Below, in pieces: positions 16,508 to 16,548 of a stretch of 19,262 nucleotides of DNA. Position 1 is the stretch's first letter, and the number at the start of each line of letters is the position of its first letter. The notes beneath the pieces are model-generated. The model did not search any database and was not told the DNA's origin. It worked only from the letters and a program-made list of their open reading frames with translations. The position numbers were made by a program, and so were the translations under genes. Source of the stretch: an uncultured Cytophagales bacterium (GTDB lineage Bacteria; Bacteroidota; Bacteroidia; Cytophagales; Thermoflexibacteraceae); assembly GCA_964577275.1 (NCBI GenBank), contig CAZNYR010000073.1:599-19860 (forward strand), in the 5' to 3' direction.

Positions 16508-16548
16508 CAAGTTTTAAAAACTTGCCAAATTTTTAAAAATTTGGCAAG
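16508..16548. promoter_or_regulatory. Overlapping palindromes in the 98-bp spacer between the MVP homolog and ORF711: 17-bp CAAGTTTT-A-AAAACTTG (16508-16524) and a perfect 28-bp palindrome CTTGCCAAATTTTTAAAAATTTGGCAAG (16521-16548). Candidate operator, attenuator or terminator.
   Basis: Both are exact self-complementary sequences. The 28-mer starts 10 nt after the MVP stop (TAA, reverse complement of 16559-16561). The stem would be AT-rich with GC clamps (CTTGCC/GGCAAG). Confidence 0.45.

Follow-up and report, generated by a model that had tools for sequence, protein, structure and literature searches.

A 19,262-bp stretch of DNA (hereafter, the window) carries a long palindrome in the spacer between a gene for a major vault protein (MVP) homologue and a gene for a 711-residue protein (ORF711), and this raises the question of whether the symmetry serves a protein that binds the DNA or a structure that forms in the RNA. 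The initial annotation had listed a dimeric transcription-factor operator, an intrinsic terminator, an attenuator and a dispersed repeat as possible roles. We conclude that the palindrome is predicted, with a probability of about 0.82, to be the Rho-independent (intrinsic) terminator of the MVP-homologue gene. This prediction draws on the sequence of the element, its non-randomness, its fold, its position, its polarity and the pattern seen in related loci, all of which were observed directly.

The palindrome in the MVP-ORF711 spacer

The genes that flank the palindrome are all located on the minus strand, and the spacer between MVP and ORF711 is 98 nt long (16461-16558). The features of the region are collected in Table 1. 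The MVP homologue is full-length and is a bacterial homologue of the eukaryotic major vault protein. On the other side of ORF711, a 709-bp region (13616-14324) contains no long ORF; a plausible 71-aa gene at 13724-13939 on the minus strand gave no family match. At the left end of the window, an ORF of more than 1,387 aa on the minus strand (3-4163) runs off the window, and it shows a signal-peptide-like N-terminus and a glycine run at the window edge.

Table 1. Positions of genes, palindromes and predicted RNA elements in the window
Feature	Position	Strand	Description
MVP homologue, 825 aa	16559-19036	-	Pfam MVP_shoulder 7.8e-29, Vault_3 5.7e-08
ORF711, 711 aa	14325-16460	-	no Pfam domain; conserved hypothetical Bacteroidota family
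Layout of the spacer	MVP-ORF711 spacer	-	TAA-TTTGTATCC-ACTTGCCAAATTT-TTAA-AAATTTGGCAAGT-TTTT-AAAACTTGG...-ATG
Predicted terminator hairpin	16520-16549	-	ACUUGCCAAAUUU-UUAA-AAAUUUGGCAAGU; 13-bp stem, 4-nt loop
U tract	16515-16519	-	UUUUU, then AAAA; directly 3' of the stem
28-mer palindrome	16521-16548		CTTGCCAAATTTTTAAAAATTTGGCAAG; core of the 30-mer ACTTGCCAAATTTTTAAAAATTTGGCAAGT
17-bp palindrome	16508-16524	no strand	CAAGTTTTaAAAACTTG; arm 8
15-bp palindrome	9911-9925	no strand	AAACTTGcCAAGTTT; arm 7
Gene after the TonB receptor	8841-9752	-	best matches: methyltransferase domain E = 0.08, hydrolase E = 0.055; neither significant
Receiver-only response regulator	7214-7573	-	chemotaxis-like cluster 4646-7573
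CheA-type kinase	5378-7210	-	chemotaxis-like cluster 4646-7573
Weak CheC-like protein	4646-5335	-	chemotaxis-like cluster 4646-7573; NCBIfam CheC 1e-07, well below cut-off

The three palindromes named in the initial annotation were confirmed in place. The largest had been described as a perfect palindrome of 28 bp; its perfection stood, but its length did not, since a scan for perfect palindromes showed one more pair on each side, such that the complete element is a 30-mer with 15-nt arms. For comparison, the 19,262-bp window was shuffled 300 times with its dinucleotide counts preserved. The longest arm of any perfect palindrome in a shuffle was mostly 7-9 and once 14, and an arm of 15 was never reached (0/300). 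Thus, the 30-mer is not a chance event, as had been supposed from its length. The arms of the 17-bp and 15-bp palindromes correspond to the modal maxima in the shuffles, and each of these two is at chance level. The second-longest perfect palindrome of the window is TTATTTGATAATCAAATAA (14236-14254), which lies ~70 nt downstream of the ORF711 stop codon.

Folding and polarity on the gene strand

Read on the minus strand, the palindrome begins 9 nt past the TAA of the MVP homologue (16559-16561). RNA folding, which the initial annotation had proposed as a check, yielded the hairpin listed in Table 1 with a predicted energy of -14.9 kcal/mol, compared with -13.2 kcal/mol for the 28-mer. The hairpin was present in both the minimum-free-energy (MFE) and the centroid structures, in sequence contexts of 116 nt and 291 nt, and no competing or anti-terminator pairing against it was found in either fold. 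The G-C pairs are concentrated near the U tract, where they make up four of the six nearest pairs (4 of 13 in the whole stem), and the upper ~8 pairs are all A-U; the window has 34-47% G+C.

The direction of the element is set by the U tract. Five U residues directly follow the stem on the minus strand, and the other flank of the hairpin is GGATACAAA. On the plus strand, no T run follows the palindrome, the flank there being GTGGATAC. The element therefore has a single direction, that of the genes, and the earlier description of A/U tracts on both sides has to be revised accordingly, given that U5 occurs on one side only. Taken as observed, a stable stem-loop on the transcribed strand, a U tract directly 3' of it and a gene-oriented placement after the MVP stop codon are the hallmarks by which intrinsic terminators are recognized.

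In an energy-based scan, both strands of the window were screened for T tracts preceded by a hairpin of -9 kcal/mol or better. The 16520-16549 hairpin ranked first among all candidates and was the only one with an unbroken stem; the remaining candidates were imperfect, had energies of -12.5 kcal/mol or weaker, and lay nearly all within coding sequence. A generic terminator scan returned 19 sites in the window against 20.5 expected, and was thus without discriminating power. It also missed the 16520-16549 site, likely because a perfect palindrome at maximal stem extension leaves no loop. A further strong hairpin of about 15 pairs, GAACTTCGGCAAGG...CCTTGCCGATAGTTC, is present at 8787-8825 between a convergent HMGL-like gene (plus strand) and ORF303 (minus strand). 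This hairpin, which has no clear T tracts, probably serves both genes as a terminator.

The element resembles the canonical unidirectional (L-shaped) intrinsic terminators predicted by TransTermHP or RNIE, which likewise have a stable stem-loop directly after the stop codon and a G-C-rich base beside a 3' U tract, with no A tract on the 5' side. It differs from the textbook form in that its 13-bp stem is longer and more A-U-rich, its palindrome is perfect through the loop, and its U tract has 5 residues where that of a textbook terminator has 7-9. At -13 to -15 kcal/mol, the hairpin is about as stable as the average terminator hairpin of Bacillus subtilis, for which a mean of -14 kcal/mol has been reported (Kingsford et al. 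2007, PMC1852404). Within the Bacteroidota, RNA-seq coverage supports the Rho-independent terminators that have been predicted in Bacteroides thetaiotaomicron (Ryan et al. 2020, PMC7366714).

We propose that termination would proceed as follows. RNA polymerase transcribing the minus strand would pass the MVP stop codon, and 9 nt further on the hairpin with its G-C-rich base would form. The polymerase would then pause at U5, where the weak rU:dA hybrid together with the invading hairpin would free the transcript. Release within 16515-16519 itself, as well as its efficiency, would be expected from what is generally known of intrinsic termination, and the efficiency may be partial because the upper part of the stem consists of A-U pairs. 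The hairpin would also shield the 3' end of the MVP mRNA against exonucleases. ORF711 would be an unrelated downstream gene, expressed either by residual read-through or from a separate promoter that lies within the 98-nt spacer or overlaps it.

The 17-bp palindrome overlaps this structure. It is composed of the last bases of the terminator 3' arm, the U tract, the next A tract and CTTG, and it folds at only -3.2 kcal/mol. Its position, 3' of the strong hairpin with which it overlaps, and its low stability led us to reject it as an anti-terminator, and we regard it as a probable by-product rather than an element in its own right.

Related loci and similar stems

Relatives of the MVP homologue were found at 53 loci in a collection with one genome per species (185,579 species genomes), the closest being 66% identical and encoded by a Cytophagales metagenome-assembled genome (MAG). 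The genomes that encode these relatives (47-66% identical) are labelled Cytophagales, Saprospiraceae, Sericytochromatia, Myxococcota, Desulfobacterales, Riflebacteria, Spirochaetes and others, and this patchy cross-phylum distribution is the most interesting feature of the window.

For 27 of the 53 loci, the MVP stop codon was located and the next 130 nt were searched. A hairpin of -12 to -34 kcal/mol, starting 4-33 nt past the stop codon and followed by a T-rich tail, was observed in roughly 18 of the 27. Most of these loci came from genomes rich in A+T, in Cytophagales, Saprospira, Aureispira, Saprospiraceae, Chitinophagales, Sericytochromatia and a few others. However, the hairpin sequences were unrelated to one another and to that of the window, and the motif CTTGCCAA-N(0-14)-TTGGCAAG was not found in the 53 loci. 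Position and shape are thus kept while sequence is not, as expected of a signal of RNA structure; a conserved operator would show the reverse. Of the roles first listed, the intrinsic terminator is consequently the one that fits the position after the stop codon, the strand of the U tract, the hairpin energy and the equivalent hairpins after MVP orthologues.

The ORF711 family is large and spread across Bacteroidota, and the neighbour genes of its homologues differ between genomes, as in a stand-alone family. A look-up of the exact ORF711 protein sequence gave no match, and the best relative among 5.8 billion proteins was 46% identical. No homologue of ORF711 was detected by tblastn in the 53 MVP loci. 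The closest relative lies on contig RDXG01000207 of MAG GCA_004292785.1, in which an MVP fragment is found on another contig (RDXG01000380). A canonical terminator, AAAAACCGG...CCGGTTTTTT, was also seen in Adhaeribacter, at the end of the co-oriented gene that precedes the ORF711 homologue and ~80 nt before the latter.

The start codon of ORF711 lies 54 nt beyond the U tract (16461-16514). With so short a gap, the terminator and the ORF711 promoter may overlap, or transcription may partly read through. No TAnnTTTG-type -7 box of Bacteroidota was found on the gene strand in the spacer. The sequence TTTG-N19-TAAGTCTA, which overlaps the 3' arm, was examined by eye as a candidate promoter and rejected, as only 4 of the 6 specified -7 positions match.

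Stems similar to that of the window were also found in unrelated DNA. At least four AT-rich metagenome contigs carry its 12-bp stem, CTTGCCAAATTT/AAATTTGGCAAG, namely L155 (1729-1755), L104 (42-68), L118 (1926-1952) and L165 (3248-3274); the L155 hairpin differs from the window 28-mer by a single A deletion. All four have A-/T-rich flanks and a short T run past the stem on at least one strand. L155 and L165 were examined in detail, and in both of them the hairpin lies just past a gene end with a short T run on the gene strand. However, loops and flanking genes differ from those of the window, and each contig has a single site. Public metagenomes hold, by a rough estimate, hundreds of millions of terminator hairpins, and among so many, convergence alone should produce a few 12-bp stems that are identical; such stems are no evidence of homology. 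We therefore interpret the four stems as convergent terminators.

Weighing alternative roles

The initial annotation had grouped the palindromes of the window into a family with a common half-site. The 9911-9925 palindrome and the 42-nt region 16508-16549 do have the 11-mer AAACTTGCCAA in common. Nevertheless, an 11-mer of the 42-nt region with 4 or more G/C turned up in 13% of Markov simulations of the window remainder (p about 0.13), and when words of A/T only were counted too, 82% of the simulations had 11 nt or more in common. AACTTG was observed 13 times against 11.4 expected, and CTTGCCAA 4 times against 0.93; two of the latter copies are the arms of the 30-mer, and one is inside the ORF711 coding sequence. 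The family is thus without statistical support within the window, and the 9911-9925 palindrome probably resembles the spacer by chance. It lies 13 nt past the stop codon of a TonB-dependent receptor gene, and it is not a terminator either, its fold being weak (-0.6 kcal/mol) and the gene strand lacking a U tract there. The gene that follows the receptor had been called GNAT-like; neither a GNAT domain nor any other significant match was found in Pfam or NCBIfam.

Word counts were also affected by coding sequence. TTGGCA/TGCCAA was observed 37 times compared with 17.3 expected from dinucleotide shuffles (about 2-fold), but its copies were almost all in sense frame 0 or 1 or in antisense frame 2, and were not enriched in non-coding DNA. 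The excess is therefore due to codon usage; it raises the background of half-site matches and inflates matches to sigma-70-like "-35" boxes. For the same reason, TTGGCA was rejected as such a -35 box upstream of MVP, ORF711 and ORF303.

If the 30-mer were instead the operator of a dimeric DNA-binding protein controlling ORF711 or MVP, with the 9911-9925 palindrome as a related site of a small regulon, then its symmetry, perfect through the palindrome centre, would be accounted for, as would its location in the usual range of operators, 60-90 nt ahead of the ORF711 start; the common 11-mer also falls, at both sites, in a spacer between co-oriented genes. We consider this highly unlikely. The common 11-mer and the AACTTG count do not exceed chance, and the TGCCAA excess stems from codons and not from a DNA-level signal. 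Moreover, the two sites differ in architecture, with the order of half-sites swapped and different spacings, and nothing alike was found upstream of the two ORF711 homologues examined or in the 53 MVP loci. The half-site pair did not recur beyond chance in the window and had no copy in those loci; the window has no transcription-factor gene, and its sole response regulator is a receiver domain alone. An operator would also leave the one-sided U tract on the coding strand unaccounted for. Genuine families of TTGCCA-N-TGGCAA palindromes were found on two contigs unrelated to the window, which itself has no such site: L152 (8355-8845) has seven TTGCCAAnnnTGGCAA sites with a 31-bp period (8406-8592) and three more nearby, giving it an iteron-like or parS-like look, and on L170 (1169-11883) seven TTGCCAAATnTGGCAA-like sites are scattered through 13 kb.

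It is also very improbable that the 30-mer is a REP- or MITE-like dispersed element, or a terminator made from a word that is over-represented, such as a DNA-uptake sequence, with the 9911-9925 palindrome as a degenerate copy. REP/BIME elements of Enterobacteria and Pseudomonas are, like the window element, extragenic palindromes often found just past a gene, where they can stabilise the 3' end of the mRNA. They occur, however, in hundreds of copies of conserved sequence, whereas the window has one long copy among about ten intergenic regions in 19 kb. A search with the 28-mer gave no further copy in the metagenome collection, none was present in the 53 MVP loci, and the matches listed from degenerate motif scans of metagenome and viral contigs were scattered through unrelated DNA, nearly always with one site to a contig. 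A RAYT transposase gene was not observed near the element, and neither flanking direct repeats nor transposase genes were noted. The word-based version draws on CTTGCC/GGCAAG, of which the window has 16 copies, where shuffles gave 7.6 +/- 2.7. Seven of them (4353, 8795, 8813, 9914, 16521, 16543 and 19099) are in non-coding DNA, which makes up ~11.5% of the window, and the word occurs in the stems of two different hairpins (16520-16549 and 8787-8825). Yet this intergenic excess is marginal when inverted pairs are counted once. We know of no link to natural competence for the source lineage. Terminators built from inverted uptake sequences have been described, with the DUS of Neisseria and the USS of Haemophilus as the common word of their stems (Kingsford et al. 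2007, PMC1852404); unlike those, the window word is only 6 nt long and about 2-fold enriched in the window.

The last of these alternatives assumes a regulated attenuator that tunes read-through from MVP into ORF711 and is switched by the 17-bp palindrome or by a bound factor, and it was in this sense that the spacer had been supposed to set MVP:ORF711 stoichiometry. The two genes are co-oriented and only 98 nt apart, no recognisable ORF711 promoter was found, the short U tract suggests leaky termination, and a second, overlapping palindrome exists. We nevertheless give this reading very little weight. Neither a mutually exclusive anti-terminator nor a ligand- or protein-binding leader appeared in the 116-nt and 291-nt folds or in Rfam searches: alternative structures and a leader peptide were absent, no Rfam family, riboswitches included, matched at the gathering score, and an E-value search of the spacer gave generic hairpin noise only. 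No tRNAs or known RNA families were found. The 17-bp palindrome, being 3' of the stem and weak, cannot pre-empt it. Furthermore, the adjacency of MVP and ORF711 is unique to the source genome when compared with the 53 other MVP loci, so an attenuator that sets stoichiometry is without comparative support, ORF711 being unlinked to MVP elsewhere.

The intrinsic terminator has points against it as well. Its U tract is short, with five U residues and then four A. The symmetry is perfect through the loop, which is not required for RNA and would equally suit a role at the DNA level, and an element that overlaps the ORF711 promoter region could also be regulatory. Accordingly, one may imagine a dual role, in which the element is the RNA terminator of MVP and at the same time a DNA site for a dimeric protein shared with AACTTGCCAAGTT, or else a family of terminators built on the CTTGCC(AA) word; we regard both as very improbable. 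If true, the dual role would couple the expression of the genes downstream of the 30-mer and of AACTTGCCAAGTT, the latter located after the TonB-dependent receptor gene, and the word family would be specific to an unsampled Bacteroidota lineage.

As an intrinsic terminator, the element would be an ordinary one, with no new biology beyond annotation. Where a perfect palindrome closely follows a stop codon and has a U tract on one side only, a terminator should be the first reading. For work on bacterial MVP genes, an MVP-ORF711 operon is a tempting inference from the map that is without support. The value of the prediction lies in the annotation, where it marks the 3' boundary of a bacterial MVP-homologue transcription unit and sets ORF711 apart as a separate unit and not a vault partner.
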